Counted from the stretch's first letter, positions 14,004-60,427 are shown. The stretch is DNA of 64,000 nt from Acidobacteria bacterium UBA6911 (GCA_963579905.1 CAUZIZ010000007.1:1462-65461), one strand, 5' to 3'. Made by a program: numbers and translations. Notes: generated by a model from the sequence alone, not told the origin.

Positions 14004-14259
14004 CTAAGCTTGAAACTTCAAGAATTCGTCGCACGTCTGAACGTCGCACGTCTCCTGTCCTCCGAAGGTGCCGCCAACGGGTGAGCTACCAGCGTGCCGA
14101 AGCCAAGTCCGACAGAGCCGCGAACGACTTGAGCCGTTAGCAAAATGAGCCCAGGTTCCGAGGAGAGAGCCGGACAACAGCACAAATCCCCAGTAGCCGG
14201 AAGTTTCCTTCTCGAATGGGGCAGCACCGCTGGGGGGGACTGACCTGAAACTTCATTGG
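14004..14259 (+). repeat. Dispersed repeat family, long copy A
   Basis: CTAAGCTTGAAACTTCAAGAATTCGTCGCACGTC...AACGGGTGAGCTACCAGC...GAGCCGTTAGCAAAATGAGCCCAGGTTCCGAGGAGAGAGCCGGACAAC...TGAAACTTCATTGG, shared with copies at 52094 and 60158. Confidence 0.9.
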
Positions 14260-14288
14260 ATAGGAAATCATGCAGGAGCAGCCGTTTG

Positions 14289-14440
14289 ACAGAGCCGTGA
14301 CTGCGAAGGAGCGGCACCGGCATACCAATGCCGGTAAACAACGAACCTGGCAGACAGTGACCCGAGGACACTCTTCTTTTAGACTCGCCACACGCCCCGA
14401 TCGGTGATCGGGGCCCGCTCCCTCACGGTCACGGCTCTGT
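14289..14440. repeat. Inverted REP pair ACAGAGCCGTGACTGCGAAGGAGCGG / CCGCTCCCTCACGGTCACGGCTCTGT
   Basis: 26-bp imperfect inverted repeats at 14289-14314 and 14415-14440, resembling the AGAGCCGCGACCG.GAGGGAGCGG REP class. Confidence 0.75.
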
Positions 14441-14510
14441 AAGCACGCCGAAGCAACGGAGAGGCGGGATCTTCACCCTTGAGGAAGGCATCTGACGAAA
14501 GAGCAAAACA

Positions 14511-14626
14511 GCGCCGTGAACGGGTGAACTACCAGCGTTACAACGCTAAGTCCGTCAGAGCCGCGAACGACTTGAGCTGTTGGCGACATGAGCCCCGGTT
14601 TTGAGGAGAGAGCCGGACAACAGCAC
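14511..14626 (+). repeat. Dispersed repeat family, core-only copy
   Basis: AACGGGTGAACTACCAGCG...AGAGCCGCGAACGACTTGAGC...ATGAGCCCCGGTT..GAGGAGAGAGCCGGACAAC. Confidence 0.85.
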
Positions 14627-14834
14627 AATCTCCGCTATCCCGACCCCAAGTCAAGGCTCGCAGTTGGACGCTTCGTAGCTTGGGATGGGTTGGCCTTTCA
14701 TATCTCAGACCTCGACCCGGATCGAGCCTTGCCCTCTGGGGGCATTGGAGAACAATCCTGCCCAGGTGCTGTTCATTCCCTGCCTCCTGATGAGATCAAA
14801 CTTTCTTGTTGTGACGCCGACGAAGAAGTCTTTG

Positions 14835-15952
14835 CTACTGGGAGAGCCAGTAGGTGAGCGCCGCGAAGAGGGCAGCTAAAGGCAGGGTGATCAACCAGGA
14901 AATCAGGATCGCCTGGATTGTTCGACGCTTCCCCTGCCGGGTGGCTAGCCCGAGGCCAAAAAGGCTACTGCATGAAACGTGTGTGGTGGATACGGGAATT
15001 CCCCAGCGCGACTCCACTACGACCAGAAACGCAGTCACCAGATTGGCGGCGAACCCCTGCCCGTGGTTCATTCTGGTAATGCCGGTGCTCATGGTCAGGG
15101 CCACGCGGCGGGCGTTGAGGAGCCCCCCAATCGCCATCGTCACTCCCACTACCAAGAAGACTCGGGGCGAGGCTCATCCCGAGCCCTGAGGCCGCGATCA
15201 GCAGAGCAACTATCTTGGGTGCATCGTTGAGTCCTCGGGCAAAGCCAACCACTCCGGCAGAAAGGAAATGGAGATGGTCCAAGATCGATTGGGCATCAAT
15301 GCCAACCAAGCGGCCCTGATAGCGCTCCCTGCAAGACTCCATTTGTCCCACAATGACCCTCAAACCGGTTGACTGAAGCACTGCGCCTCCGCTCGGCTGA
15401 AGTTGAACCGGTTGAGGCTCTTCTCCTTCGACACAAAGGCACATGCGTCGCTCTACGCCCATCCGCAATCGCGCAGCTCGAAAGAGAGGGTAAACACCCG
15501 CCGCCAGAACCAGGCTCAGCAGAGGGCTCAAGCCAAGGGGAAGAAAGAAGCTCGTACCCAATCGGCTCAAGTCGACCGAACCGGCGGCAGTGAGCCCAGC
15601 ACACCTACCAAAGCTCCAGTCAGAGCGTGGGTGGTGGAGATGGGCCATCCTGTCAGGGTCACCAGCATCACCGTGATCGCCGCACCAAGGCCGACGGCGA
15701 ACAGAAACGAAGGGTCGTGCGTGAGCGTCTCTGGCACCAATCCCTTTCCGCTAAATGCCTTCACCAACCGGCCGGAGAGCAGCGCCGCTGCACAGGAACC
15801 CAGCAAGGTCGTCCCCGTTGCCCACCATAGGGCGTGGCGATAGTCGGTTGTACGACTGCCGAACAGAGTTGCCACGCCTTTGAAGTTGTCGTTGGCTCCG
15901 TTGCGTAGGCCAGAAAGAGCATCACGCAGATCAGCCCAAACATCATCGTCAT
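14835..15952 (-). pseudogene. PiT family inorganic phosphate transporter, three frameshifts
   Basis: FLAYA|NGANDNFKGVATLFGS, PISTTHAL.GALVG, GFARGLNDAPKI, PVSTTHVS spread over four ORFs. Confidence 0.9.
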
Positions 15953-16230
15953 CTGAAGTTACTCTACCCCAAGCTTACAAAAGCCAACAACATAAGCGAT
16001 CGAGCCTGTCGGGAATCATACCGGGTGCTCACAGACCGAACTTGCGCTGCTGGGAGCTGCTCGCCTAAACTTCTCCGGTTGCCCGTCCATCGTCGCATTT
16101 GTCATGTTGGGGACAGGGGTCCCAACCGCCGTTTCTCGGAGCGGATCATTGATCGAGGCGATCCTTTAATCGGGCACGATCCGGTGATGCCAGTTGCTAC
16201 CGAAGGGCAGGGCATCAGGACCAGCCGCCC

Positions 16231-17292
16231 ATGATACCAACCAGTGCCCTGACCTTCTGCGTAGCCCTGGTGATTGCGGCCATCTTGACCCCAATCGCCC
16301 GAAGCCTGGCGCTGCGACTAAAGATTCTCGATCAGCCCGACCCTCGCAAGATCCACTCGAGTCCGAAACCACTTCTTGGTGGAGTAGCCATCTATCTTTC
16401 GGTAGTTCTAAGCCTGCTTCTGGTAGTCGAGGCACCACTTCGGATCCAGATAATTTCCCTGGTAGCAGCTGCTACAGTGCTGGTCGCCGTTGGTTTGGCT
16501 GACGATTGCATTTCTCTGAGCGCCCGCCTGAAACTGTTTCTTGCCATCCCCATGGCGGGGTTGATCCTCGCAATCGGAGGATTTCGGGTCACCACGTTCC
16601 CCCTGGGCAGCCTCCTGGACAGCTTACCTGGGGTGGCGCTTGTCTTCAGCTATCTGCTCACAATTCTTTGGGTCGTTGCGATCACCAGCGCCTTCGCAAT
16701 CCTCGACCATATGGATGGACTGTGCGCTGGATTGGCTGCCCTGGCATCTTGCTTCTTCTTGCTTTTTTCTCTCATGCACGATCAGGTTCTGGCCAGCCTT
16801 CTGTCAGCAGCCATGCTGGGTGCCAGCCTGGGTTTCTTGAAGTGGAACTTCAAGCCGGCAACCATCTTCATGGGTGACAGTGGCGCCATGTTTGTGGGAT
16901 TGATGATGTCCGCCATGGGCATCATGCTTGGATTCAACGACATGACAATTCAAACCGGCTGGATGATTCCCATTCTAATTCTCGGCATTCCGATTTTCGA
17001 TAGCACGCTGGTTGTCATCTCCCGCTCCCGTAGAGGGCTCGCACCCTCGCAGTCTCCCGGCAAGGATCATACCGCCCATCGGTTGGCAGCTCTGGGTTTG
17101 GGCGAATACAAAGCGGTCCTTATTCTTTACGGGTGCGGCCTGGGTCTGGGAGGAGCTTCGCTATCGATCGCCTGGTTCACCACGATACAGAGCTGCCTCC
17201 TCTTTAGCGCACTCCTCCTCTGCTGGGTTCTGGCCGTAGTTTGGCTAGAGCGCACACCCTATGAGCGGCAGGAGTCGGGATTGAGCAAATGA
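16231..17292 (+). CDS. MraY/WecA family glycosyltransferase 4 (undecaprenyl-phosphate GlcNAc-1-P transferase)
   Basis: RKIHSSPKPLLGGVAI, GLADD, DHMDGL, FMGDSGA, DHTAHRL; multiple TM segments. Confidence 0.9.
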   Translation: MIPTSALTFCVALVIAAILTPIARSLALRLKILDQPDPRKIHSSPKPLLGGVAIYLSVVLSLLLVVEAPLRIQIISLVAAATVLVAVGLADDCISLSARLKLFLAIPMAGLILAIGGFRVTTFPLGSLLDSLPGVALVFSYLLTILWVVAITSAFAILDHMDGLCAGLAALASCFFLLFSLMHDQVLASLLSAAMLGASLGFLKWNFKPATIFMGDSGAMFVGLMMSAMGIMLGFNDMTIQTGWMIPILILGIPIFDSTLVVISRSRRGLAPSQSPGKDHTAHRLAALGLGEYKAVLILYGCGLGLGGASLSIAWFTTIQSCLLFSALLLCWVLAVVWLERTPYERQESGLSK

Positions 17293-17393
17293 CAGCCAGG
17301 GACTCTTCCAAAAAACCCGAATATTGCCTTGTTTTACATTGGGGGCTATAATTCGGAGATCTTCCGACGCATATCGAACCAAGAGGCTCAGCC

Positions 17394-18365
17394 ATGACCA
17401 AACTTCATCGACGTGATTTCTTGAAGGCACTCCCTGCCAGTGCTGCCGCGCTAGGACCGGCGACACAAGTTCTCTCCAAGCACCACCAGCAGAAGTTGGC
17501 TATTGGTCTTGGCTTCAGCCTGTACAACACCCGAAGCCTCCGCACCCCAGAGGCCATGAGGATGTGCAAACAGGTGGGCTACGATGATGTGGAGCCGGCA
17601 ATCTATCCTGGTTGGCAGGATGACCCCATGGTTCTTTCCAAATCCGCCCGCAGAGAGATCGCCCATCTCTTCGCCGAGTTGGGTTTAGGCCTGAGCGGAC
17701 TGGACGAGGACCTCAGAGTCGACGTGGACGACGCAACACATCGGGAGAATCTGGAACGAATCAAACGGGCGGCACAGCTCTGGCGTGACATCTACCCCTT
17801 CTGGGCTCGCACCCCGAGCCGCCGCAATCGTCTTCCGGTGCTGGTTTTGACCCTGGGCGGGAAGATGGCGGAATGGGAACAGGCGAAACATCGGATGGCT
17901 GAGCGACTGCGAGGGTGGGCCGAGGTGGGCGAGTCCCACCAGATCCTGCTAGCCATCAAACCCCACGTCGGCAACGCCCTGCACTCCCCTGAGGGAGCGC
18001 TCTGGCTGATGCAGCAGGCCGCAAACCCATGGGTCAAGATCACCTACGACTACAGCCATTTCAGGGCTATGAACTACGACATGGTGGACTCTATTCGGCT
18101 TCTGGGATCACACGCCGTTTTTACACACGCCAAAGATGCCACCACCGAAAATGGAAAGACGCGTTTCCTGATGCCGGGTGACGGAGACACCAATTACGTC
18201 ACCTATCTCAAGGAGCTTCAGGCTCAAGGATATCGGGGATCTGTCGTCCTTGAAGTGAGTGGACAGATCCACAGGAAGCCGGGATACGACCCGGTAGCGG
18301 CCGCCAGGCACTGCTATAAGAGCCTTTCCGCTGCCTTCGAAAAGGCCGGGGTCGCCAGGGCCTGA
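17394..18365 (+). CDS. Sugar-phosphate isomerase/epimerase (xylose isomerase-like TIM barrel), Tat signal
   Basis: MTKLHRRDFLK leader, YDYSHF, HAKD, VVLEVS. Confidence 0.85.
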   Translation: MTKLHRRDFLKALPASAAALGPATQVLSKHHQQKLAIGLGFSLYNTRSLRTPEAMRMCKQVGYDDVEPAIYPGWQDDPMVLSKSARREIAHLFAELGLGLSGLDEDLRVDVDDATHRENLERIKRAAQLWRDIYPFWARTPSRRNRLPVLVLTLGGKMAEWEQAKHRMAERLRGWAEVGESHQILLAIKPHVGNALHSPEGALWLMQQAANPWVKITYDYSHFRAMNYDMVDSIRLLGSHAVFTHAKDATTENGKTRFLMPGDGDTNYVTYLKELQAQGYRGSVVLEVSGQIHRKPGYDPVAAARHCYKSLSAAFEKAGVARA

Positions 18366-18485
18366 CAAGATCGCCTGAATCCCAGCTCATAGACCGGCGC
18401 CGCTCACGAGCCACGATTCCCAAGTGGCCGCGCCCTTTGAAACTCGGGATTTAGGATTCGTTTGTATCTTGGAACTCTCTTGGCC

Positions 18486-18782: not shown

Positions 18783-18812
18783 ACACTGCTCTCCGATTAA
18801 GTCGAGAACGCC

Positions 18813-19397: not shown

Positions 19398-19455
19398 GGT
19401 CCCGCGTATTGTCACAGAATTGTTTCGTGAAAGTAAATATTGTAAATTGGGTTAG

Positions 19456-22315: not shown

Positions 22316-22401
22316 GGGCTCTGTGAACTTTTCATCGGCGACCAAGGGACTCTAGCGCAAAGCTGAGCGCCAACTCTGCGAAGTTATTCATGCACCAGCC
22401 C
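22316..22401. mobile_element. Internally deleted copy of the IS5-like MITE, overlapping the lipA 3' end
   Basis: Minus strand GGGCTGGTGCATGAATAACTTCGCAGAGTTGGCGCTCAGCTTTGCGC matches the MITE at 48483; other end ...CACAGAGCCC. Confidence 0.75.
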
Positions 22402-25937: not shown

Positions 25938-26064
25938 GAGGGGACCGTCACGGCAAAGCAGACAGAGGCTGGACCCTGACAGTGCATGGCTGCAATGTAA
26001 TCGGCCCACTTCCGGAAATCAAGGCTGAGCGTAGTCTCGGATGAACCCATCGTCTAGGTTCTTA

Positions 26065-26245
26065 GGGTCTGCGCAAAAATAACTTGGCATTTTGGCATCT
26101 CATCTTCACACCATCTTCGGCCGCTCCTCAATCGCGAAATCCTCAACGTAGACCCCGCTACGCCTGCGGTTTCGCTCAATCGTTCGCGGCCACATCTGGT
26201 GCAAATCTGAGCGCCAATTCTACCAAGCTATTCTTGAGCAGACCC
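26065..26245. mobile_element. IS5-like MITE, 181 bp, TTA target duplication
   Basis: TIR GGGTCTGCGCAAAAATAACTT vs reverse complement of right end GGGTCTGCTCAAGAATAGCTT; TTA at 26062-64 and 26246-48; inverted copy at 48483. Confidence 0.9.
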
Positions 26246-37708: not shown

Positions 37709-37863
37709 ATCTGGCCCGCTGCGACCAACTCGACATCGGCGGTACAGTTGTCTCGACGACCCTCTCTAGCGTATCCAGAGGGTAAGCACTGCTACATCAG
37801 GGATCAAGTTTCCGACCACACAGGCAGACCATTTCCCAACCCTTTCCGCTCCAACAGTGCTGC

Positions 37864-37965
37864 GAACGTGTGAACTTCCGGCACTACGAAGTCGAGTCCG
37901 GCAGATTCGCGGGCGACTTGACTTATCAGCAATATGAGCCCAAATTTCCGAGGAGAGACCAGAAG
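37864..37965 (+). repeat. Dispersed repeat family, degenerate core copy
   Basis: GAACGTGTGAACTTCCGGC..ACGAAGTCGAGTCCG..GGCGACTTGA..AGCAATATGAGCCCA..TTCCGAGGAGAGA. Confidence 0.65.
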
Positions 37966-38114
37966 TCTGCGCGGCAAAAAACGGATCCGATGAGGGTACT
38001 GCCCTGAAAGGACTTGGGGAAAGAATATCGCGTCGCAAGTGGGTCGCCGCCTCGGCCTGCCTGGGACTTGCAGGATCAGGGCAGAATGCTATCTGGGGGA
38101 GGACGAAAAAGGAG

Positions 38115-39939: not shown

Positions 39940-40549
39940 AGTCTGGACGTCGACGACGCGGTGCCCAAAGTGTCAACACACTCTCCGCCGTTTGTGGCTA
40001 CAGGGCTGGGCTCACGGGCGCTCAGATTCTCCAGGTCCTGAGGGCGGTAGGCCCTTTTCGTTCAGGGAGGACTCGCTTGGAGCGGAAACTCGCCTCTCAC
40101 GCGACGGCGTTTTCTGGGCAGACAATCGCGCCCGGTAGGTCGGAATTTAAGATTCTCTCGTCTTCATCGCTGCTCTCCGCAGGCATCACAGCCTGGCGCA
40201 GCATCGTTGGACTTGGGTTCGTGCTATTACCAGTTCTGGTCTTTGTAGTCCTGTTTGACCGGAAACCTGAAACCCTCATTCGGCCTGTAAAAATTCAAGT
40301 GTCACCTTAGTCCCGCTCCAGAAGCCCTGGCCCCATTCGAGAACGAAACTTTGCAATTGATGGAAGCCTGAAGCGCGAGCGAGGGGTCGGGGACCAGTGC
40401 AAATGTTCCCGACTCGTTTGCTTGCCTTCGCTACAAAGTCCGTTTGTTGACGTACGCCGCCGCGGCCCAACCCCTGGCTTTCGCTTCAGGATTCCCTGAC
40501 CTAAAGATCGATTAATAAACGGGTTATACCTTTGTTCCTCAGGGAAATC

Positions 40550-41064
40550 CCAATGAAGTGTGAGGTTAGTCCCGCCCCCAGGAAGCACTGGCCCCATTCG
40601 AGAAGGAAACTTCGGTCGAGGATAGGCGATATCGTGCGTCACTCCGTGGGGAAGAGTTGTCCAGCTCTCTCCTCGGAATCTGGCCTCATGTTGCTAACGG
40701 GTCGAGTCGTTCGCGGCTCTGACGGACTTGGCTTTGTAATACTGGTAGTTCGCCCTCAGGTCGTGACAAGAGTCTGGGGAGTCTAGTCTTGGTGAAGTGG
40801 GTTGATGCTGTCGGCAAACAGGTCCCGTTCGACGCGCTGTCCGGGGACTAGCCCGGATTTCTCATCGCTTGTCGTAGCGAGGCGCCGCAAGGGCCGTCCT
40901 GGCAAGGCTTGCGACCGAGGCCGCCGCAGTCGTGCTTTGACAGTACGTCGAGGCGGCCGACCGAGCGCAACGCAGCCAGGGCGGATGATTGCGGCGGCGC
41001 AGTAGACCAGCGATGAGAAATGCGGGCTAGCGACGTGGGACGTATTCTTGAAGTTTTAGCTTAG
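40550..41064 (-). repeat. Dispersed repeat family, long copy B (inverted, interrupted by a MITE)
   Basis: Minus strand starts CTAAGCTAAAACTTCAAGAATACGTCCCACGTC at 41064 and the core resumes at ~40755; a second partial 3' end lies at ~40299-40352. Confidence 0.8.
40848..41030. mobile_element. 183-bp MITE with CTAG ends and 22-bp terminal inverted repeats
   Basis: CTAGCCCGGATTTCTCATCGCT ... AGCGATGAGAAATGCGGGCTAG (1 mismatch). Confidence 0.9.
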
Positions 41065-41090: not shown

Positions 41091-42623
41091 TTACAGGGGA
41101 TTTCTCAGCTGCAAAAGGAGCTCGAGCATGGTTTCTATATGGACGGTCTCCTGAGTGGCTGTCTTGGGGCGGGTGCGGATAATCATGTCCTCCAGGGTGG
41201 CAATGGCTGACTCCGTTCTCTTCTCCAAGCTCGCTTGCAGGTTGAGTCTGAGGGCGGCTCTGGAATCCTCGTCCAAATCGAGCTGGTCCAGCCGTGCCAG
41301 CGATTTCTCCAGTTCCTTCACCCCGTTGACGGCACAGTAGGCGGCGGCCAGAAAGAGGCTCACGGCTCTTTTAGGCTCCTCTTCGTCGTTGATGAGTCCG
41401 AGCCGATAGTAGGCATCGCAAATCTCACCGGTTCTGGTTGCATCCTCAAACTCGGCTTCGGCACTCTCGGGGGAGTAGTCCCTCAGGTGGATCAGACCGG
41501 AGACGTAGCTCACCATCTCGGATTTTGGCTGATACTGCTTGGCCTTATCGATCCACTCGCGCGCCTCGCCCAGTGCGCCGATGAGATAGTGGTTGTACCC
41601 CTGGTAGTAGGGGATCTGGTCGCGGTAGTAGGAGGTCAATTCTTGTCCGAAATCGCCCCATCGGTCCTGGTTCGCCAGCAGACGATCCAGCGCTATGTTG
41701 GACTCGATGTTCTTCTCCAGGTAATGCAGGGCTACCGCCTTTCCGAAGAGTGCAGCGGGATTCTCCGGATCGAAGGACAGCGCGCGCTCGAAGTTTGTAA
41801 TCGCTTTCTCACTGTCCAGGACTATGAAGAGCCAGAAATCTCCCAGCGCCGTGTGGGCCTTGGTGTAGTCGGGCACCAGCTCGATGGCCCTGGCCAGGGA
41901 CTCGATTCCGTCTGCATACCTGGTTTTCTCCAGAAGGAAACCTCCTCGATAGAGAAAGTGTTCGGCGAAACGAGGGTCCGGCTCTGGCAGACCCTCGACG
42001 TCCGGACGTCCCTCCTTCTGCACGATGTACAAGGTCAGGGGAGAGGACGGGAAATCCTGGATGAACTGATCGCGAAATTCTTCGCAGGCAGCTGGGTTGT
42101 CCGCACCGATAGCGAGCAGGTCGAGATAGGCGCTGAGAACCGGTTCTGCCTCGCCTGGTGAGAGAACAGATCCAAGGAATTCGTACTTGGCATCGCCTCG
42201 CTCTTTGGCACTGAGGTAGGCATCGGCCAATCCGCATAACCTGAATGGACCTTCCGGCGCCTTCCCACACAGCTCGTCCAGCACTTCCAAAACGGACGCG
42301 TCTGGGATGTTTTCCTGCCTCTCTCGGATGATTCGAAGAATCCCCGTCAAGAGGAGTTTGTCAGTGAGCTCGTTGGTCTCCTTGACTAGCCGGGCCTTTT
42401 TGTAGAAGCTCTCCGCCTTCCTCCAACCGTAGAGGTGCTGTTGGCGAAAGTAGGTATCGGCCTCGGCCACACGAGCCTGAAACTCAGGTTCCCTGGGGTC
42501 TTCTACACGAACCTCGATCTGCCTTTTTATGCAGCTCAGAAGCAGAGCACCGACTACCAGGAGAGTCGCGGCCCAAAGCCCGGCGACCACAAGAGAGCGC
42601 TGCCGGCATAGGGTCTGAAGCAT
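41091..42623 (-). CDS. Tetratricopeptide repeat protein with N-terminal membrane anchor
   Basis: LARAIELVPDYTKAHTALG, FERALSFDPENPAALFGKA. Confidence 0.8.
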   Translation of the reverse strand: MLQTLCRQRSLVVAGLWAATLLVVGALLLSCIKRQIEVRVEDPREPEFQARVAEADTYFRQQHLYGWRKAESFYKKARLVKETNELTDKLLLTGILRIIRERQENIPDASVLEVLDELCGKAPEGPFRLCGLADAYLSAKERGDAKYEFLGSVLSPGEAEPVLSAYLDLLAIGADNPAACEEFRDQFIQDFPSSPLTLYIVQKEGRPDVEGLPEPDPRFAEHFLYRGGFLLEKTRYADGIESLARAIELVPDYTKAHTALGDFWLFIVLDSEKAITNFERALSFDPENPAALFGKAVALHYLEKNIESNIALDRLLANQDRWGDFGQELTSYYRDQIPYYQGYNHYLIGALGEAREWIDKAKQYQPKSEMVSYVSGLIHLRDYSPESAEAEFEDATRTGEICDAYYRLGLINDEEEPKRAVSLFLAAAYCAVNGVKELEKSLARLDQLDLDEDSRAALRLNLQASLEKRTESAIATLEDMIIRTRPKTATQETVHIETMLELLLQLRNPL

Positions 42624-45529: not shown

Positions 45530-46051
45530 ATGAGCAGCATTCTTTCCTCGATTAAATCTGAATTCCGCAGGTACAGAACCCTGGGTGAAGGAGCTATCTC
45601 GCAGCTCCTGTAAGGTGAGTCGTCGGAGCCGGGGGCTGGGGGAGGCAATTCCGTGGCCACTCTCGTCTGCCATATGGCCGGGAATCTGAAGTCGCGCTTT
45701 ACCGACTTTCTGAGTTCGGATGGAGAGAAGCCCTGGCGCAAAAGGGACTCGGAGTTCGTGTCCCGGAAAGTCAGCCGTTCTGAACTACGGGAGAAGTGGA
45801 ATGACGGCTGGGACTGCCTGTTTGCGTCTCTTGAAGACCTCTCAGACGGCAACCTGGGGGATCGGGTGTCAATCCGGTGTCAGCAGTTGACGGTGCATGA
45901 AGCACTCCACAGATCGCTGGCCCATGTCAGCTATCACGTCGGTCAGATCGTCTACATCGCCAAATCATTTCGAGGAGACTCCTGAAGATTCTTGAGTATC
46001 CCTCCCGGAGAGTCGGAGAAATACAATCTCAATCCCAGCAGTGAGCAGTGA
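45530..46051 (+). pseudogene. DUF1572 / DinB-like protein with two in-frame stops
   Basis: MSSILSSIKSEFRRYRTLGE.AI.QL* (TAA 45611), NS.A..V.H.AGNL.SRFTDFL.SDGEKPWR.RD.EF, HVGQIVY, GDS*RFLSIPPG (TGA 45983). Confidence 0.9.
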
Positions 46052-46072
46052 GCGGAAGCAGCTAATCCGACA

Positions 46073-46184
46073 GCGCCGCCAACGGGTGCACTAGCAGTAT
46101 GACGAAGCCAGGTTGGGCAGAGAACGACTTGAATCGCCAGCAGAATGAGCCCCGGTTCCGAGGAGAGGGCCGGACAGCAGCACT
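46073..46184 (+). repeat. Dispersed repeat family, degenerate core copy
   Basis: CGCCGCCAACGGGTGCACTAGCAG..ACGAAGCCA..GAACGACTTGA..AATGAGCCCCGGTTCCGAGGAGAGGGCCGGACAGC. Confidence 0.75.
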
Positions 46185-46209
46185 CACTGCTTCACTGCTC
46201 ACTATTCCG

Positions 46210-47571
46210 CTAAAGCCCTTGCCACACGGGTCCATCACCCGTCTCTCTCCATACCTTTCGGAACTCCGGGCTGCCATCGTCGTCCCAATGGTCGGTCCGA
46301 ATGGGATTGCCGTACCCGGGAACGGGTCCCGGGAGAGTGGAGGAGCCGGTGTGAAGGGCGTGTCTCTTCTGGTCGGGTCGCAGATAGAGGGTGGGACCGT
46401 TCCCATATCGGACCCGAAACAGGAATCGTCCCGGATCGGGCCTGGAAGCGGCAGCATACTGCTCGCACTTCTGCTGATCCAGACTCAACCCGAGTCCTGG
46501 GCCCTCTGGAACCTGAACGCTTCCAGCCACGACGGGAATTGACTCGACGGTAACGTCGTCCTTCCAGAGGTTGGCCAGGGGAATTCCGGGAAGCGTCGCC
46601 ATCTTGTAGACGGCCGCCTGGTGAGCCAGGAAGGCCATGCTGAGGTTGCCTCCCGGCAGCTGCAGGATAAAGGGCATGCGTGTGCTCTCGGCCAACGCCG
46701 CCAGTCTCATGTTTGTGCCCACCGGGAAACGTGAGGCGACGAAGCCATCGCAAAGTCCATGGCGGACATAGAACTCGGTGGAATCCAACGCATGGTGAAA
46801 GATCAGGGGCAGGCCACACTTTGTACGAAGGGCCTTCCAGGCTTCATGGTCCTCGATGTTGATGGGATCCTCGATCTCTCCTGCCACCGGGAATTTCTCA
46901 AGCTCCCTCAAGACTGGGTAGACAGCGGCCAATTCCGAATCGGCATTGAAGTCATAGTGGATCTTGAAGCCTGGCGGAGCGGCGTCCTGCATGGCAGCGG
47001 TCTGATCGATGGCGTTCTGAAACACATCCACGTGATACTTGAGCCAGCGGTAGCCACGGGCCGAGACCTGCCGGACCTCCTCGGCCATGGCCTCGGGAGG
47101 CTGGGAGACCGTCCAGGCAGCCACCGGTACCCACTTGCGAACCTGTGGGCCCAACAGCTTCCAAAGGGGGACGCCCAAGATCTTTCCCATCAGATCGTAC
47201 AAGGCCATGCTCATGGGCATGTTGTGGGTAGTGGCGAACCAGTCGAACGGAGTGGTCCCAAGATATTGTGACAAGTCTTCGCCTGGCGTCTTGAGTGCCC
47301 ATTTCTCGCCGTAGCCCTCCAAACCCGTGTCCGTACGGACGATGTAGATGGTCCGAACCGGGATATCGGATTGGCTTCGGAAGAGGGCCCTAGCGTTGTA
47401 ATCGTGGAGCGGCGAGATAATCTCCTGCACCTCGACTTCAGTAATTCTGGGCTGGCGGGAGGGAGCCTGCTGGAAATACCGGGCGCTGCCCCACAAAGGC
47501 ATCCCCGAGGCAATTCCGGCCGTACTTGCGGTGAACATCTTCAGGGCGTGGCGGCGATTGAGCAATTTCAT
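46210..47571 (-). CDS. Mandelate racemase/muconate lactonizing enzyme (enolase superfamily), Tat signal
   Basis: NRRHALK leader, TDTGLEGYGE, MALYDLMGK.LGVP..KLLG, WLKYH, DFN, EDP. Confidence 0.9.
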   Translation of the reverse strand: MKLLNRRHALKMFTASTAGIASGMPLWGSARYFQQAPSRQPRITEVEVQEIISPLHDYNARALFRSQSDIPVRTIYIVRTDTGLEGYGEKWALKTPGEDLSQYLGTTPFDWFATTHNMPMSMALYDLMGKILGVPLWKLLGPQVRKWVPVAAWTVSQPPEAMAEEVRQVSARGYRWLKYHVDVFQNAIDQTAAMQDAAPPGFKIHYDFNADSELAAVYPVLRELEKFPVAGEIEDPINIEDHEAWKALRTKCGLPLIFHHALDSTEFYVRHGLCDGFVASRFPVGTNMRLAALAESTRMPFILQLPGGNLSMAFLAHQAAVYKMATLPGIPLANLWKDDVTVESIPVVAGSVQVPEGPGLGLSLDQQKCEQYAAASRPDPGRFLFRVRYGNGPTLYLRPDQKRHALHTGSSTLPGPVPGYGNPIRTDHWDDDGSPEFRKVWRETGDGPVWQGL

Positions 47572-47729
47572 GATGAGAGCGCTGGAATTGGCATCGACTG
47601 GGTCCGTCCTGAGAAGGATCCTTCTCTCCACACTCGGTGTCAAGGGAAGACTGTATTCGCGGTCGAGCAGAGGCTGCACACTTTTCAAGCAATTTGAGCA
47701 GGCAACCCGTAAGGTGGTGTAATGATCTT

Positions 47730-48482: not shown

Positions 48483-48664
48483 GGGTGCGTTCAAGAATAA
48501 ACTTTGCAGAGTTAGCGCTCAGCTTTGCGCCAGATTTGGTCGCGAACGATTGAGCGAAACCGCAGGCGCAGCCGGGTCAACATTGAGGATTTCGCGATTG
48601 AGGAGCGGCCGAAGATGGTGTGAAGATGAGATGCCAAAATGCAAAGTTATTTTTGCGCAGACCC
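48483..48664. mobile_element. IS5-like MITE, second full copy (inverted), TAA target duplication
   Basis: Reverse complement of 26065-26245; TAA at 48480-82 (the YdcF stop codon) and 48665-67. Confidence 0.9.
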
Positions 48665-48778
48665 TAAGTTAGCCTCCGAAGCGGGGAAACAGCCTGCCAG
48701 TCCGGTGCTGAAGCCTAACCCTATACCAACATCGAAGTTATCGCTATCATTGGGGAGTCCCATCTAGTAGGGGTATTT

Positions 48779-51700
48779 ATGATGAAAGATTGGCTGGCCC
48801 GGCGAGTTCTTCTAGCTGTCTCGCTTTTCTGCGCGTCGACCGCTTTCTTCATTACCGGGATTGCAGCGCCCAAGTCTCTGGGCGACTTAACGGGACCCTG
48901 GCAGCTGTGCCTGGACGATTACCTCATCCAGGAAAAATCCGGAGTGGTTCGGCGCTATCACCCCTTCGAAAAGCATGCCTCCAATCCCGTGCTGAAACCG
49001 GATCAGCCCTGGGAAGGGGAGGTTGCCTACCTGTTCGGCTCCGTTCTTCCAAACGAGAGCAGGACTGGTTATCGGATGTGGTATCACACCCATCGCGGCT
49101 ATCGGAATCTATACGCTACCAGCAAGGATGGGGTCCATTGGGTCAAGCCCGAGCTAGGCATCGCGGAGTTCAACGGCTCTCGCGCAAACAACATCTTCAT
49201 CGAGAGGCCGAAGGAGAGCCATCTTCCTATCATCATCCATACGCCCTGGGAAACAGACCCAAACCGCGGCTACAAACTGATCTACTACGATTACGGGCGC
49301 ACGGACGCGAAGCATCCTGTCAGCGGATTCTACGGGGCCTACTCACCCGACGGGATACATTGGAGCAAGGAGTTGCCGGAGCCGATTCTTCCCGATCCCG
49401 GCGACGTCGGGAACTTCGTCTGGGATCCCAACCGAAGCCGCTACATCGGCTACGCCAAGATCTTTGCGGCAGTTCGTGGATTCCGTCGTCGCAGCATCGG
49501 CTTCACCTCGACCAGCGACTTCGAGCACTGGCCTCCGACGGAGTTGGTCCTGACGCCCGACGAAGTCGATGACCGCTGGGTCGAGAGCGACCGGCAGCAC
49601 ACCGATTTCTATGGACTGGCGGCGTTCCCCTACGAGTCCATGTACCTGGGCTTCCTCTGGGTATTCCGCATCACCGAAGGGACCAACGATGGCCCCATCC
49701 ACCTGGAGCTGGTCAGCAGCCGTGACGGGATTCGTTGGAAGCGGCAAGAAGGAGACCGGCCCCCGATGCTGGCCCTGGGTTCCGCCGGACGCTGGGATGG
49801 GGGGATGCTCCATACCGCGACTCAACCCCTGGTCAGCGGCGATACCATCAATCTATTCTATGGAGCTTCCGATCAGACCCACTCGAGTTCCATAGCCGGT
49901 GGTTGGGGAAACTGCGCCATTGGGCTGGCTACCCTGAGAAAAGATGGTTTCGCCTCTTTGGATGCCGGAGCCGAAATAGCGACGATCACAACTCGGCCCA
50001 TCGATAATCTTCAAGGACGACTCTACCTTAACGCCGACGCCAGGAATGGTTGGATCAAGGTTGAAATCCTGGATGACGCCGGCAAGGTCGTACCAGGCTT
50101 TGGATTGGATGAATGCCAACCCCTCAAGGAGGATGCTGTAAAACAGGGGGTCAGTTGGGGACAACTGCAAGCTCTGCCGCCAGCGAAGGCTCCTCGGAGA
50201 GTTCGCTTCCAGCTTCAAAATGCCTCCCTCTACGCTTTCCGTGCGGATCAGCCGGTCTCCCTGGCCACAGCACCGGAGCCCCTGAAGATCCTTCTCGACT
50301 TCGAGGACGATGGCGACAGCCCTATCGCTGACAAGGCGGTCGCGGACGGTCGGCAGAAGACACGTCTTTACCACTCCGCCAGGGTCATCCAGGACCAGGG
50401 CAAAGCCGCCAGAGGCACGGGTGCCCTGGAATTCGGAGGTAGCGGTATCACCCATGACGCCCTGGAGATTCTGGACACGAAGGATCTAGGTGAGCAATTT
50501 ACGCTGGCAGTGAGGCTGAATGCCCAACAGCGAAAGGGCCAGCGCCGTTCTTTCACAGCCCGCCCCATGCGCCTTTTCAGCTCCTATAGGGGAAGCGGCA
50601 AGCCCACTTCGGGCGAGCTCATCTTCGATTTTGACGCCAGGGCTGGAAGTCTGCGGTTCATTTGGAACGGGCAGACGGTCACTTCTCGATCAGGATGGAT
50701 TCAGAAGAACCAGTATTACCACCTGGCTGCCACCTATGATCGGGGACACGTCGAGCTCTTCCTGGATGGCGAGAACGTAGGCGAGGGAGATCTATTGCCC
50801 GGCACCGCCCACCTCTACTACGACGGCACTGTCCTCAGGCATCTCTCCTCAGCCAGCAACACACCTCAGGTGGGCGTGCATTTAGGCTCCAACCTGCGAG
50901 TGGGTCAAGACCTGGAGGGAGTCTTCGTCACCCACAAGAATCTGGACCAGAGCAGCTCCGAAAATCAGCTGTTCGGTCTCGTAGACGACATTCTCGTACA
51001 GCAGGGTCCTCCTGAGTTCCCACTCAGTGGGCGTCTTGCCGAAGACTCCGATTTTGTCCAAGCGATCGGGGAAATACAGACGTACGGAGTCGGCGGGGCC
51101 ATGGGCAAGGGCGGCTGGGCTCGATCCTTTCAGGGTCTCGATGGAACCATCTTCCTGCAGGGAGAGAAGAAGTCAACCGATGGCGGCAAGACCTTTGTCG
51201 ATCACAGTGGGCCCTCTTTCGAGGAAATCCTTAGGATCCCGGAGGGGGTGATCCACAATCGTTCTGGACTCTTCTATGCCGTCGATGGCCCGGTCGATCT
51301 CAAGTCGCAAGGGGTCTACTCGGTTAAAGCCTGGCGCTCGACGAATGGGTTCCGGACCCTCGAGACAGAAGAATCGACTGTGAGGATTCCAGGAGGGCCG
51401 GGTCGACAGAGGAAACCGGACGAATGGTACGGGTTCTACTTCTACCGAAACATGGTGGAACTGCCTAATGGGACGTTCTTGACCACCATGGAGGGGAATC
51501 TCGAGAAGGACAAGCTCCCACCCAACGACCGCCGCAGCGCCAGTGAGGCCCTCTACATGCAAAGAACCATTGTGGTGACCTCCCAGGACCAGGGGCGAAC
51601 CTGGGACTACCTCTCGACAGTGGCGGTGCCGGTGCCTGGAGATCCCGTGGGCGAGGGATTCGATGAGCCCACCATCCTGCGGCTACCCGATGGGCAGATC

Positions 51701-52078: not shown

Positions 52079-52093
52079 GTTCCCCTGCACACC

Positions 52094-52378
52094 CTAAGCT
52101 GAAACTTCAAAGAATTCGTCGCACGTCCGAACGTCTAAACGTCGCACGTCTCCTGTCCCCCGAAGGTGCCGCCAACGGGTGAACTACCAGCGTTACGAAG
52201 TCAAGTCCGACAGAGCCGCGAACGACTTGAGCCGTTAGCAAAATGAGCCCAGGTTCCGAGGAGAGAGCCGGACAACTCTTCCCCACGCAGTGACGCACAA
52301 ATCCCCAGTAGCCGGGAGTTTCTTTCTCGAATGGGGCCAGCGCTTCCTGGGGGCGGGATTGACCGGAAACTTCATTGG
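52094..52378 (+). repeat. Dispersed repeat family, long copy C
   Basis: Highly similar to 14004-14259 with small insertions. Confidence 0.9.
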
Positions 52379-52578
52379 CAAATGTAGCTTCGGCCTCTAG
52401 TCCAAAGTATTTTTTCGAGCCTTTGGCTCGGATGGCGCCCTGGAGCCCACCACGACTCCGGACCCAAAGTTTTCTTGTAAAATGATACGGCTCGCAGCCG
52501 GGGGAGGGGCCGAGCTGAATCCGAGGCAGATTGATCGAGCCCTTTATGGTAGAAACATTGGCACCAAGGAGATTCTCT

Positions 52579-56671: not shown

Positions 56672-56733
56672 TTCCAACCGCTCTGATCGACTACCCGTTT
56701 TGCTTGTCGTCAGGAAGACCCAGTCGAGTTGGA

Positions 56734-57819
56734 TCAAAAGGAAATCTGGATTTCCTGCTCGACTTGCCCCGACATATTCTTAATGCTGATCTGGGCAGCC
56801 ATATTCTCGGCAACACTCTGGAACGCCTCGGCCTGCTGCGACTCGGGATCGGCCAGCACAATCGGTTTGCCTTCGTCGGACTGCACTCGAATAGAAGTAG
56901 AAAGCGGGATCTCTCCAAGGTAGGGTGTCTCCAGTTGATCCGCCAGTCTGCGAGTTCCCCCGCTCCCGAAGATATCGTCACGCTCGCCACAATGTGGGCA
57001 GGTGTAATAACTCATGTTCTCAACCATGCCCAGAATAGGACAATTCAGCTGGTTGAACATGGCGATGGCTTTCTGGGCTACGTTCAGTGCTACATCCTGG
57101 GGTGTTGAGACGACCACCGCTCCCGTGAGGGAAATCTTCTGGCATAGGCTCAACTGAATGTCACCGGTTCCGGGGGGAAGGTCGATGATCAAGTAGTCCA
57201 GACTGCCCCACTGAACACCCCCAAGAAACTGGGAGATCATCTTGTCCAGCATCGGTCCTCGCCAGATCACGGCCTTCTCCTGGGGCAGGAAGAACCCCAT
57301 CGAGATGACTTTGACACCATAACGGTTTACAGGAATCATCTGCTTGTTGGGGCCCATCACGGGCTGTTCAGCAATCCCCATAAGGGTGGGAATACTGGGG
57401 CCGTACACATCGGCATCCATCAGTCCGACGCTGGCTCCGGTACGGGCCAGCGCCAGTGCCAGGTTTGCGCTAACTGTTGACTTGCCGACTCCTCCTTTGC
57501 CACTGGCCACCGGTACGACGTTTTTTACCTCAGGAAGGAGAGCCGCAGCCTTCTGGTTCATGGTGGAGCGAACCTGCGCGGTCATATGGACATCGACCTG
57601 TTCGAACTGCGGCAAGGACAGGATGGCTTGTCGAGCCTGCTCCTTCAGCTGATCCTTCACAGGACAGGCAGGAGTCGTAAGCTCGATTGTCACCGACGCG
57701 GCGGCGCCACAGACCTTGATGTCCTTGACGAATCCGAGTGAGACGATGTCCCGGCGAAGATCCGGATCTTGCACGCTCTTCAGCACGCCCAGAATTGCAA
57801 CCTTTTCAGCTTCTTTCAT
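56734..57819 (-). CDS. mrp: Mrp/NBP35 Fe-S cluster carrier ATPase with N-terminal DUF59 domain
   Basis: VQDPDLRRDIVSLGFV, LTTPACP, ASGKGGVGKST, WRGPM, DLPPGTGD, CPHC. Confidence 0.95.
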   Translation of the reverse strand: MKEAEKVAILGVLKSVQDPDLRRDIVSLGFVKDIKVCGAAASVTIELTTPACPVKDQLKEQARQAILSLPQFEQVDVHMTAQVRSTMNQKAAALLPEVKNVVPVASGKGGVGKSTVSANLALALARTGASVGLMDADVYGPSIPTLMGIAEQPVMGPNKQMIPVNRYGVKVISMGFFLPQEKAVIWRGPMLDKMISQFLGGVQWGSLDYLIIDLPPGTGDIQLSLCQKISLTGAVVVSTPQDVALNVAQKAIAMFNQLNCPILGMVENMSYYTCPHCGERDDIFGSGGTRRLADQLETPYLGEIPLSTSIRVQSDEGKPIVLADPESQQAEAFQSVAENMAAQISIKNMSGQVEQEIQISF

Positions 57820-57820
57820 T

Positions 57821-58339
57821 TTATAGACTCCGACTTTTTTTCCAGTACAACCAAAAAATTGCCACCAACGTCTTGGCATCTACGATCTGGCCTGACTGGC
57901 ACAGTTCAAGCGCTTCCTCCAACCGATACATTTCGATGGATATATCTTCGTCGAACTCAGGGTTGGGTTCCACCACCTGCATCTGGTTGCAATAGTATAA
58001 ATGCAGAATCTCGTCGCAGAAGCCCGGCGTCGAATAGAAGCTGAAGAGGTGCTCCAGCTGTCCGGGACGTAGACCGGTTTCCTCTTCCAGCTCTCTAGCT
58101 GCCGCCGCTGCGGGCTTCTCACCGCCATCCAGTTTACCTGCTGGAAGCTCCAGCAGCTGCCTCTGCATAGGATACCGAAGTTGCCGAACGAAGGGGATCC
58201 TGCCATCAGGGAACTCGGCCAGTATGACGACGCCACCCGGATGGCGAACCACTTCCCGAAGGCACTCCTCACCCTGGATTTCGATCTGATCGACAATGAG
58301 TTCAACGATTTTTCCGGAGTAGATGTGCTTGCGTAGCAC
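57821..58339 (-). CDS. NUDIX hydrolase (ADP-ribose pyrophosphatase-like)
   Basis: PAGKLDGGEKPAAAAARELEEETG Nudix box; QLRYP; IVDAKT. Confidence 0.92.
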   Translation of the reverse strand: MLRKHIYSGKIVELIVDQIEIQGEECLREVVRHPGGVVILAEFPDGRIPFVRQLRYPMQRQLLELPAGKLDGGEKPAAAAARELEEETGLRPGQLEHLFSFYSTPGFCDEILHLYYCNQMQVVEPNPEFDEDISIEMYRLEEALELCQSGQIVDAKTLVAIFWLYWKKSRSL

Positions 58340-58342
58340 CTA

Positions 58343-59311
58343 TTAGCTGACCTCGATGAAAATCTTACCCGGAATCTTTCGGGTATACATCTTCACCTCT
58401 CGGGCAGATTCTCGATCTTCCGATCCCGACTGGTAGAACATCACATAGTGGCTCTTCATCTCTCGGATGATGTCAGTGTAGATCTCGTTGAGGTCCTGGA
58501 ATTCCTGGGAAAAGATGGTGCGCCCGCCGAAGCGCAAGGTCTGATCTACGAAGCGGTTCTGCAAGACGATGAAGTTGTGGAACTCACGACTGATGGACCG
58601 TCGGATCGGCGACTCTCGCTTGCCCAACTTCTTCCGATAGCGCTGGATGAACCGGTTGGTATAGATGATGGGATAGATAGTGATACCCGTTTGGCGAGCT
58701 TCCGAAATCATGTCTTCGAAGTTCGCCTTGCTCGTGGTGTCTATCCCGTCCGTGATCAGCATTATCAGCTTCTTTCCCGACCGTTCCTTGAGCACGTTCT
58801 GGGCAACCCAGATCACCGAATCATGCAGGGCAGTCTGTCCGTCTGTCCTCAGATCCTCAAAGTAGGATGAGAGACTGGCAGGCTTTTCTTCCCAGTCCAG
58901 AATGACGCGTGGAGTTCTTGAGAACGCCACAAATGCCGCTTGCTCCTGCTCCAATCCAGCGAAGAAGTCCAGCGCCGTACCAAGAGCATCATCGAGGTAA
59001 TTTTCGATGCTCCAGCTGGTGTCCAACATGACTACAGCGCTGATAAGTACCTCCTGCTCTTTGAGCACTGCGATATTTTGAGGCTTCCCATTCTCCAAGA
59101 TGACGACGTCCTCCATGGATAGGTCGCGAATGAAGCTGCCCTCCGAATCGCGAACCAGGAAGCTGACCTGGATGTGCTCCAACTCCATGGTCACCTGGAT
59201 GTTTTCAATCTGGAAATCGCCTTGATCCTTAGGGTCTTTCTCGGTGGGAACGGCAGATACGCCTTGAAAAATCAGACCCCAGAGAACTACACAGATGCCC
59301 CATTCTCTCAT
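58343..59311 (-). CDS. VWA domain protein (Acidobacterial VWFA-related)
   Basis: LDTSWS MIDAS, GQTALHDSV, ITDGID, EMKSHY. Confidence 0.85.
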   Translation of the reverse strand: MREWGICVVLWGLIFQGVSAVPTEKDPKDQGDFQIENIQVTMELEHIQVSFLVRDSEGSFIRDLSMEDVVILENGKPQNIAVLKEQEVLISAVVMLDTSWSIENYLDDALGTALDFFAGLEQEQAAFVAFSRTPRVILDWEEKPASLSSYFEDLRTDGQTALHDSVIWVAQNVLKERSGKKLIMLITDGIDTTSKANFEDMISEARQTGITIYPIIYTNRFIQRYRKKLGKRESPIRRSISREFHNFIVLQNRFVDQTLRFGGRTIFSQEFQDLNEIYTDIIREMKSHYVMFYQSGSEDRESAREVKMYTRKIPGKIFIEVS

Positions 59312-59592
59312 GACAAACCTCATCCCGCAGACGAACCTGAGATTACCCCATGCTAAGGCCAAGCAGTGTCAAAGACAAGTTCGATTGTGGACTGTGAGCA
59401 GCCTCGAAGACGTGACGGAAGAGTACTCCATTCTTGCAAGTGGATCACCTATCTTCGTTGGGCCCTTCCGGACGGCGCTCAGCGACCAGGCATCGGTTTG
59501 AATAGAAAGCCACATCTACGTTAAGCTTTCAGAAGGCAACCAGCCCGCATCCAATGTGAAACATTGCGCTGTGAAGTAGGTCCGACGGTCAA

Positions 59593-60147
59593 ATGAAGTA
59601 TTTCAATTCACTCAACATCCTGCTGGCTGGCCTCTCTGTCTTGTTGGTAGGGTATGCGATGATCCAGACCATCTGGAAGCCTGAAGCAAAACCGCAGCTA
59701 AACATTCCGAGTCAATCCAGCGAACCGCGTAGCTCCTCAAGGCCGACCGGTTCGCTTTCTCCGGCCACCGAGCGGAGAAATCTGGGTGCTCGACGGATCT
59801 CTGCCCCTGGTACGAGGCCACGCGACCCCATCCAGGCTCCAGGCCAGGCCGTGGCACCTGCTCCTTCGGCCAGTATCCCTGTTGGGGTGCCTCCTCGTTC
59901 TGAGACCACGAGCGTAATCTCGACTTCAGGTGCGCCCACCAACACAGGACGGGAAGCCAAGGACTCGCCCTCAGCGCAGCCTCGTCCCCAGGCCGTGGGA
60001 AAGAGCCGTCCCGCGCGTCAGACCCGTCCCCTCTCTCGACCTTATTCAGGGCGCCCGGGCTTTGCTGGAGAGGCGAAAAGAGGCAGTCAAGACGGGCCTG
60101 CGTCTCCGCCGGTGCGCTCGTCCTTTCCTGCCCAGCGCTTGCCCTGA
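59593..60147 (+). CDS. Membrane-anchored Pro/Ser/Arg-rich low-complexity hypothetical protein
   Basis: N-terminal TM helix followed by a disordered tail. Confidence 0.6.
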   Translation: MKYFNSLNILLAGLSVLLVGYAMIQTIWKPEAKPQLNIPSQSSEPRSSSRPTGSLSPATERRNLGARRISAPGTRPRDPIQAPGQAVAPAPSASIPVGVPPRSETTSVISTSGAPTNTGREAKDSPSAQPRPQAVGKSRPARQTRPLSRPYSGRPGFAGEAKRGSQDGPASPPVRSSFPAQRLP

Positions 60148-60157
60148 TCTAGCTATT

Positions 60158-60427
60158 CTAAGCTGGAACTTCAAGAATTCGTCGCACGTCTGAACGTCGC
60201 ACGTCTCCTGTCCTCCGAAGGTGCCACCAACGGGTGAACTACCAGCGTTACGAAGCCAAGTCCAACAGAGCCGAGAACAACTTGAGCCGTTAGCAAAATG
60301 AGCCCAGGTTCCGAGGAGAGAGCCGGACAACTCTTCCCCACGCAGTGACAGCACGATATCGCCTATTCTCGACCAAAGTTTCGCTCTCGAATGGGGCAGC
60401 GTAGCGGAGAGGGAACTGACCTGAAAC
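60158..60427 (+). repeat. Dispersed repeat family, long copy D
   Basis: Highly similar to copies A and C; the 3' module matches copy B. Confidence 0.9.

Follow-up and report, generated by a model that had tools for sequence, protein, structure and literature searches.

A dispersed family of noncoding, mosaic repeats placed at gene ends in a marine Acidobacteriota clade

The 64,000-nt stretch analyzed here (Acidobacteria bacterium UBA6911, GCA_963579905.1 CAUZIZ010000007.1:1462-65461), which we refer to as the window and over whose full length all positions are counted, carries seven copies of a dispersed repeat family among its housekeeping genes. The copies are intergenic and occur on both strands at spacings of 6 to 23 kb, and the G+C content of the window is 55 to 60%. 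An earlier reading of the DNA, made from the sequence alone (the sequence-only reading), had listed seven copies; all of them are present, and about zero would be expected by chance. For example, an 18-nt probe for the 5′ part of the core has six matches in the window (0.02 expected from shuffles), as does a 34-nt probe for its 3′ part (0.00 expected). Repeat finding places cores on the + strand at 14070-14185, 14513-14628, 37859-37974, 46070-46185, 52168-52283, and 60223-60338 and a single core on the − strand at 40638-40755, while a profile search of the window returns exactly seven copies of the module coreR and five of the 3′ block, B3. Overall, the repeat family is real, undescribed, lineage-specific, and noncoding.

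An exact-pattern scan of species-representative genomes identified at least 58 loci, all from four Acidobacteriota metagenome-assembled genomes (MAGs), and the family is present in at least four marine Acidobacteriota MAGs. The window also matches marine metagenome contigs (ENA ERZ27247690; JGI 3300031802 and 3300031803) that stop inside the repeats, at window positions ~52270 and ~60396, and the repeats explain the assembly breaks at these points in these genomes. None of 79 unrelated metagenome loci (0.52 Mb) contains the family. A phage or plasmid origin was rejected, with only two chance matches in viral contigs among the phage contigs searched and zero matches in the plasmid collection, and so was a tRNA or tmRNA origin, as no tRNA, tmRNA, or Rfam features were found in the window. 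No paper on the family sequences themselves was found in the searchable literature.

Modules were aligned and mapped over the window and the 58 loci of the four MAGs (73 core instances; loci are cited by L numbers), and their order is invariant in the 73 copies: T5/J, a left module, coreR, zero to three units of ins19, and B3/J′. The junction motif J (~14 nt) reads C-TRA-S-CTGAAACTT, followed by C or G and then A. The left modules behind J are of several unrelated types. The GTC type, found in the long copies of the window, consists of a GTCGCACGTC-type tandem and coreL; typeB is ACAAG rich, with a GATCGCC hairpin at its end; and typeC is AGTGA rich, with or without coreL. CoreR (~70 nt) is the sole universal part of the element. 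The “110-nt core” of the sequence-only reading corresponds to coreL plus coreR, and coreL is missing in ~55% of copies, the 5′ half of the core being replaced by unrelated modules. The mapping confirms the modular 5′ block (the GTCGCACGTC tandem) and the 3′ blocks that had been proposed. Of these, ins19 is a 19-nt unit, CTCTTCCCCACGGAGTGAC, repeated up to three times after coreR, and B3 (AAGTTTCnTTCTCGAATGGGGC) has a small CCAGC/GCTGG hairpin followed by GGGG..ACTRAC, with a second J (J′) at its end. The copies and associated modules in the window are as follows.

14004..14265, + strand: full GTC-type copy; J 14004-14018, starting 1 nt past the TAA stop of a 2-hydroxyacid dehydrogenase gene; GTC tandem 14026-14055; coreL 14060-14107; coreR 14107-14185; B3 14199-14265, with J′ at 14240-14253
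14266..14450, + strand: “H” hairpin module behind J′; 41-nt inverted arms 14289-14329 and 14400-14440
14513..14631, + strand: core-only copy (coreL plus coreR), in tandem in the same 832-nt intergenic spacer as copy 14004
37859..37974, + strand: core-only copy, the most degenerate (63% identity to the reference)
40286..40500, − strand: “P” hairpin module (~40366-40490) and solo B3 (40353-40286) with degenerate J′ 40310-40297
40548..41064, − strand: long copy; J 41064-41051, 26 nt past the stop of the open reading frame (ORF) at 41091-41513 (−); start of a GTC block; nested 183-bp MITE (miniature inverted-repeat transposable element) 40848-41030; coreL/coreR 40755-40656; ins19 40656-40638; B3 40614-40548, with degenerate J′ 40569-40556
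46037..46185, + strand: copy with an AGTGA-rich (typeC-like) left module and core; coreR 46111-46185
46180..46209, − strand: remnant of a typeC left module, GAATAGTGAGCAGTGAAGCAGTGAG, with J cut down to CTTTAGCG
52094..52385, + strand: full GTC-type copy; J 52094-52107, 15 nt past the stop of a 1,099-aa BNR/Laminin_G gene; GTC tandem of three units; coreL; coreR 52205-52276; ins19 52276-52294; B3 52316-52385, with J′ 52359-52372
52384..52470, + strand: degenerate GTAG-tagged repetitive extragenic palindromic (REP) dimer (“T module”), directly behind the J′ of copy 52094
60158..60430, + strand: full GTC-type copy; J 60158-60171, 10 nt past the stop of the ORF at 59593-60147; GTC tandem; coreL; coreR 60260-60331; ins19 60331-60349; B3 60374-60430, with J′ 60416-60429

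The arrangement of core, B3, and H is seen again in L012. Copy 37859 alone is located between divergently oriented genes; it lies upstream of an Amidohydro_2 gene. The remnant at 46180..46209 begins 4 nt past the TAG stop of a convergent MR_MLE gene (46210-47679, −), and the site in L009 that is syntenic to copy 46037 holds only ~85 nt of unrelated or remnant sequence. The DUF1572 gene next to this copy has a TGA at 45983-45985 where the L009 orthologue has TGG; because this shortens the ORF, the copy would originally have begun directly at the ancestral stop. The MITE nested in the long − strand copy has 26-bp terminal inverted repeats (CTAGCCCGnATTTCTCATCGCT) and CTAG on its flanks. Its ends resemble those of an IS1380-like insertion sequence (IS) (DDE_Tnp_1_4, 465 aa) at L026 1828-3530, which is inserted in a coreR spacer with a TTAG duplication.

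CoreR itself consists of two near-invariant blocks, CAGAGCCGCGAACGACTTGA and ATGAGsCCArGTTCCGAGGAGAGAGCyGGACAAC, on either side of a hypervariable spacer of ~10 nt and near-constant length. The blocks are near invariant across 61 distinct copies from five genomes. In the orthologous pair L046/L049 (flank, 89% identical), both blocks are identical and the spacer is changed at ~8 of 14 positions, which indicates purifying selection or homogenization. A small, perfect palindrome, GCTAGTACGCTGT TACAGCGTACTAGC, sits in the spacer of one coreR (L001, ~5990-6015) and stands alone at L009 (~5975-6005), at the site orthologous to window copy 46073; it looks like a further REP-like mobile unit.

The direct repeat that flanks the copies is CTGAAACTT in all of them, and the 5′ pentamer of J differs systematically between the ends, with CTRAG at the left and CTRAC at the right. 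In 497 kb of element-bearing loci the 14-mer J is found 49 times, compared with a single occurrence in 520 kb of unrelated loci, and that one control match is from the same population as the window. J also punctuates many further repeated modules, including the GTAG-tagged REP dimer, the long H and P hairpins, and others. The REP dimer (GTAGCTTTGGCCTCCAGGCCGAAG ... GAGCCTTTGGCTC ... inverted GTAGCGGTGGCCTCCAGGCCGCC) is terminator-like, with a 9-bp stem and a T-rich tail (fold z = −3.4). It represents a separate, REPIN-like family, also present in L005, L009, L016, L023, L034, L045, L050, and others, that is found directly behind J in about half of the cases.

The placement of J relative to genes is similarly regular. 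Real gene calls were used for the window, and five of its six loci lie just downstream of a co-oriented gene, with J starting 1, 15, 10, and 26 nt past the stop codon in the four long copies. According to ORF-based calls across the loci, 34 left ends border on unique sequence, and 26 of these come after a co-oriented ORF with 100 codons or more; the stop is within −35 to +6 nt of J in 23 of these 26, and in seven left ends J supplies the stop codon with its own TRA. The distance from stop codon to copy is thus 0 to 35 nt. The upstream gene is co-oriented in 41 cases versus 22 by these crude calls. The sequence-only reading was right to propose a dispersed repeat family, but it missed the J at both ends, the anchoring at stop codons, and the sense orientation. 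The cassettes lie in sense orientation between a stop codon and REP or other terminator-like palindromes and are therefore presumably cotranscribed with the upstream gene as a 3′ untranslated region (UTR).

The 2-hydroxyacid dehydrogenase gene before copy 14004 has orthologues at 89 to 95% identity on long contigs, which allows the same gene end to be compared between lineages (amino acid identities are given in parentheses).

Window (reference): J, GTC-type core, B3, H, and second core; spacer of 832 nt before the convergent PHO4 gene
L147 (91%): J and typeB core behind the dehydrogenase stop
L146 and L152 (92%): degenerate J and typeC core, then IS1595
L150 (92%): J and REP dimer only, then a group II intron
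L148 and L149 (89%): J followed by just a short REP module; in L148, an intact PHO4 gene comes after 82 nt
L151 (68%): J absent

J is thus old at the end of the dehydrogenase gene, and the core cassette behind it is present, absent, or of another subtype depending on the lineage. The core subtype found at this site is the one that is dominant in the genome concerned. A strain with 99% identity to the window lacks 23 nt in the GTC tandem of copy 52094.

Other mobile elements were found next to these repeats. In L150 (3048-3150 and beyond), a group II intron (RVT_1 plus GIIM ORF, 5′ end GTGCG) is inserted directly after the GTAG-REP dimer behind J; some bacterial group II introns habitually insert after terminator-like stem-loops, and the L150 intron fits this habit. 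An IS1595-family transposase gene stands directly after the typeC copy in L146 (4320-5243) and L152 (3106-4028), and a 1.77-kb IS with a 530-aa transposase-like ORF is present in two copies of 98.9% identity (L005 5107-6854 and L055 2034-3799). L060 from position 11266 is 99.98% identical to the window from 14221 over 11.3 kb, then diverges inside B3 and runs into a pantothenate kinase gene, i.e., another downstream gene; either the sequence was rearranged at the repeat or the assembly is chimeric.

J is also the exact insertion point of an IS110-family element, always at the same position and in the same orientation. In L009, which is syntenic with window positions 41.4 to 48.2 kb, a 1.69-kb IS (3035-4720) is inserted inside J, with the junctions ...CTAAGCTGA / TCTCATAAGAACACGG... 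and ...CCGTGTTCTTATAGA / TGAAACTTCA; it encodes a 341-aa protein (DEDD_Tnp_IS110 plus Transposase_20), and a transposase with 89% identity to it is found on at least 23 contigs of one assembly. Junctions were examined in L009 and at ten further places (L153 to L162, at ~1099-2772 in each; element length, ~1670 bp). The left junction follows CTAAGCTGA in 11 of 11 copies; the right end was readable in nine, eight of which continue with (T/C)GAAACTT (TGAAACTT). Judged from its sequence, with a short left end, a right end of ~545 nt, and subterminal inverted repeats of 13 to 16 bp, the element is a member of the IS1111 group as defined in PMC11208160. The right end contains 7- to 8-mers matching the left (AAGCTGAT) and right (ATAGATG) junctions, as a guide might, but ~6 such matches are expected by chance and we make no claim for them.

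The sequence-only reading saw no cognate enzyme in the window, and indeed none of its genes codes for a transposase, recombinase, or reverse transcriptase. Furthermore, no parent autonomous IS with cassette ends was found in ~0.5 Mb of flanks and no RAYT gene within the loci examined; the ISs seen in the flanks (IS110, IS1380-like, IS1182-like, and IS1595) have ends unrelated to the cassettes.

Module order is fixed, copies are anchored at stop codons, cargo is turned over at one orthologous J between sister genomes, tandem units are polymorphic between strains, and the IS110 element inserts at J. We consider it fairly probable that the copies are noncoding, non-autonomous mosaic cassettes of a marine Acidobacteriota clade that belong to the DNA level, are closer in kind to the bacterial interspersed mosaic elements (BIMEs) of E. 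coli than to a MITE or an RNA gene, and are turned over at J. The unit would be the cassette between two direct copies of J, placed in the sense direction behind a stop codon and ahead of the GTAG-REP or other terminator-like palindromes. Cassettes may be gained, lost, and exchanged by recombination at J. A possible agent is a site-specific enzyme acting in trans, for which the J-specific IS110-family recombinase is the sole candidate seen; alternatively, slippage or gene conversion could act, with J serving on the side of the gene and the longer homology of B3/REP on the far side. The two core blocks would be kept as a protein or recombinase binding site required in cis, or else homogenized among copies, rather than for folding. 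The position between the stop codon and the terminator may be a safe harbor, so that copies would ride in 3′ UTRs.

Several observations weigh against this DNA-level reading. No excision or insertion was caught in the form of an empty site and a filled one between flanks that are otherwise identical: synteny is lost at the stop codon in L013/L016, L046/L049 have the element in common and not the far flank, and a metagenome scan with the PQQ_2 protein found a single close relative (99%), with others at ≤58%. The sites without a core still hold J and REP, protein identity between the compared species is only ~90%, and the gene calls outside the window are ORF-based. No mobilizing enzyme tied to the cassettes was found in the window or flanks, the IS110 element and the cassettes have no sequence in common, and the known IS110 mechanism duplicates only a 2-nt core and not J. 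Finally, the bias toward sense orientation, and the two internal blocks that are strictly conserved between species, would be compatible as well with a role for the host at the level of RNA or protein.

A more specific version of recombination at J would make it a natural recombination site for RNA-guided, bridge-type (IS110/IS1111) recombinases, with J-flanked segments excised as circles and re-integrated at further J sites by “half-match” J × J′ recombination; half-match recombination has been reported for donor sites (bioRxiv 10.64898/2026.08.31.748434). We regard this version as quite unlikely. If true, it would represent a cassette-shuffling system for 3′-UTR modules, i.e., cores, REP dimers, and hairpins.

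The sequence-only reading had also proposed a structured RNA with a nested hairpin, in which AACGG/CCGTT as the outer stem and CAAGTC/GACTTG as the inner one would form a functional fold. The complementary segments are present and pair in 89.0% of cells across the 29 copies with both halves, some one-sided changes give G-U pairs, and the C/T alternation in GCYGGA keeps a G-C or G-U pair. However, paired cells amount to 88.8% in shuffled alignments (223 of 500 shuffles are as high), and the covariation score of the stems is 0.146 versus 0.148 in shuffles (292 of 500). Because pairing is no better than in shuffles, the complementary segments reflect conserved sequence and are not evidence of folding. 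Minimum free energy z-scores of single copies against shuffles are +1.34 (sense), +0.96 (antisense), and +0.06 (core alone), and RNAalifold on the same 29 copies gives −7.3 kcal/mol with a covariation term of −0.17 and no compensatory pair; coreR alone gives −2.7 kcal/mol. The typeB copies and the typeC copies lacking coreL are wholly without the 5′ partner strands, and a search of the whole window against Rfam returned no match at gathering scores and only noise at E ≤ 10. A functional RNA fold is accordingly highly improbable, and this part of the earlier proposal is largely refuted; its mobile-element part is broadly supported, as the copies are dispersed, absent from distant relatives, and replaced by variants or by no core at an orthologous gene end.

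Other structures were rejected as well. A closing stem for B3, GAAGTTTC/GAAACTTC (an 8-nt pair between J and the B3 start), lacks compensation in the AAAGTTCC subfamily, and a bulged hairpin, GAA(CGA)CUUG/CARGUUC, around the hypervariable spacer is uncompensated in six ACGTG variants. By eye, a group II intron domain V was rejected, as was a reverse-strand sigma-54 promoter, whose spacing is off by one.

In a rival reading, the cassette is a host element of the 3′ UTR: purifying selection would keep the core because its unstructured, purine-rich blocks (for example, CCGAGGAGAGAGCCGGACAAC, with two GGA motifs), cotranscribed with the gene upstream, would bind an RNA-binding protein or a trans-acting RNA and thereby tune mRNA fate, with mobility being secondary. 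Low predicted structure suits a single-stranded binding site. The sense orientation between stop codon and terminator-like REP dimers is in agreement with such a role, as are the near invariance of the two blocks and their identity in the pair with the diverged spacer. However, homogenization among hundreds of copies explains block identity equally well, copy 37859 is upstream of a gene, and 22 of 63 scorable locus copies are not behind a co-oriented ORF (ORF-based calls). We regard a primary host function in the 3′ UTR as unlikely, and favor the DNA-level cassettes.

A micro-ORF was also considered, since the invariant ATG of coreR, present in nearly all copies, would start a small peptide, M-S/R-P-G/S-S-E-E-R-A-G-Q..., whose modal length is 16 aa. 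Counted by codon position, deviations from the consensus number 30/28/65, four of the five most variable sites are third positions, and two unrelated downstream sequences each yield 16-aa products. Against this, there is no Shine-Dalgarno sequence upstream, C termini vary with lengths from 16 to 64 aa, and the 19-nt unit shifts the frame. Furthermore, block 1 (CAGAGCCGCGAACGACTTGA) is as conserved yet lies upstream of an in-frame TGA, GAGGAGAGAG is nearly free of synonymous change, and the codon-position counts come from copies that are not independent samples. Translation of this ORF appears very unlikely. Independent small-RNA genes driven by a promoter of the extracytoplasmic function (ECF) sigma type are extremely doubtful: in GTC-type copies, J and the GTC block read TGAAAC-N17-CGTC or AAACTT-N17-TCTGA, resembling the sigmaE/AlgU- and sigmaW-type consensus sequences, but this match was noticed post hoc and is confined to the GTC subtype, while typeB, typeC, REP, and H modules stand behind an identical J and have no −10-like element, and a terminator-like REP dimer is often directly behind J. 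A scan for sigma-70 promoters and intrinsic terminators inside copies found none above background.

Among known systems, the BOX elements of Streptococcus pneumoniae are built from modules in the series boxA-boxB(n)-boxC and vary in the number of an internal unit, as ins19 (zero to three) and the GTC units (one to three) do here, and both families are intergenic; to our knowledge, no transposase is known for BOX. Unlike the present family, BOX elements have a predicted stable fold and no tie to stop codons or a junction motif, and the two show no sequence similarity. Mycobacterial interspersed repetitive units (MIRUs) are oriented with transcription, overlap stop codons with their ends, contain short ORFs, and show polymorphism in tandem copy number. 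The stop-codon overlap, tandem polymorphism, and short ORF of the present family are reminiscent of these, but MIRUs are simple tandem units of 40 to 100 bp in operons, whereas the family described here is a dispersed mosaic with unrelated modules and J.

Also among the closest analogues are the BIMEs of enterobacteria, which are intergenic, noncoding mosaics of motifs in fixed order combined with REP palindromes. Most lie behind genes, the number of units varies, and no gene for an enzyme stands next to them. The present copies likewise combine fixed-order motifs with REPs in intergenic positions downstream of genes. Unlike BIMEs, to which it has no sequence relation, the core cassette is nonpalindromic and has a fixed sense orientation and direct J ends that often include the stop codon. 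REP features were taken from PMC3733652 and PMC3116915. A REP or REPIN identity for the core cassette itself was rejected, since a REP is a 20- to 40-bp palindrome with a GTAG or CGTC tag, usually in an inverted dimer (PMC3733652), and the cassette lacks such a tagged palindrome; the neighboring T module has one (GTAGCTTTGGCCTCCAGGCCGAAG, inverted GTAGCGGTGGCCTCCAGGCCGCC).

MITEs are similarly small, non-autonomous, dispersed, and lineage-specific, but the present family has neither terminal inverted repeats nor a variable target-site duplication, the flanking repeat always being J. In agreement with the sequence-only reading, an inverted-repeat search finds no classical terminal inverted repeats at copy ends, only the 8-nt GAAACTTC/GAAGTTTC pair, and the duplication is not copy-specific, so a MITE was rejected; the genuine MITE nested in one copy, with its CTAG duplication, shows the contrast. 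An integron attC site or cassette array, which would have an imperfect inverted repeat (R″-L″...L′-R′) behind each short cassette and stand next to intI, was rejected because copies are 6 to 23 kb apart, more than half lack the 5′ arm, and no integrase is encoded in the window. A palindrome-associated transposable element (PATE) derived from IS200/IS605, which would have subterminal hairpins at either end, was rejected because the small CCAGC/GCTGG hairpin occurs near the right end only, with none near the left end of GTC, typeB, or typeC copies.

The targeting of REP-type repeats by the IS110 family is documented (PMC11208160; bioRxiv 10.64898/2026.03.19.712850), and IS621 in Escherichia coli and ISPpu10 in Pseudomonas putida offer precedents in the same sources for a high-copy intergenic repeat that is hit at one position and in one orientation. 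Here, however, the target is the 14-nt nonpalindromic J and not a REP stem-loop, and the IS is of the IS1111 group. It represents a natural example of that group with a single recognizable chromosomal target (11 of 11 copies) and may be useful for deriving guide-target rules of bridge recombinases.

We found no described counterpart for the direct J at both ends, stop-codon anchoring, strict module order, and lineage-specific swapping at one orthologous J. The family represents an undescribed, high-copy system of intergenic mosaic repeats of the BIME/REP kind with unusual placement rules in an uncultured marine Acidobacteriota clade, and it raises the testable question of whether short junction motifs let recombinases shuffle noncoding cassettes between gene ends.

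The window also contains a second repeat family of 167 nt, with two long copies that are 92% identical (48502-48668, +; 26061-26227, −). The first is followed after ~110 nt by the start codon at 48779 and the second after ~50 nt by that at 26009 (−); the family has no Rfam match. A 35-nt fragment at 22351-22385 (−) begins right behind the TGA that ends the lipoyl synthase gene and has a J-like TGAATAACTTCG. This family and coreR block 1 have the motif CGCGAACGAyTTGAGC in common. Finally, the PHO4 phosphate transporter homologue that adjoins the repeat-filled 832-nt spacer (14835-15950, −) is split over three frames, versus an intact 371-aa orthologue in L148, and is probably a pseudogene, or else the result of assembly errors.

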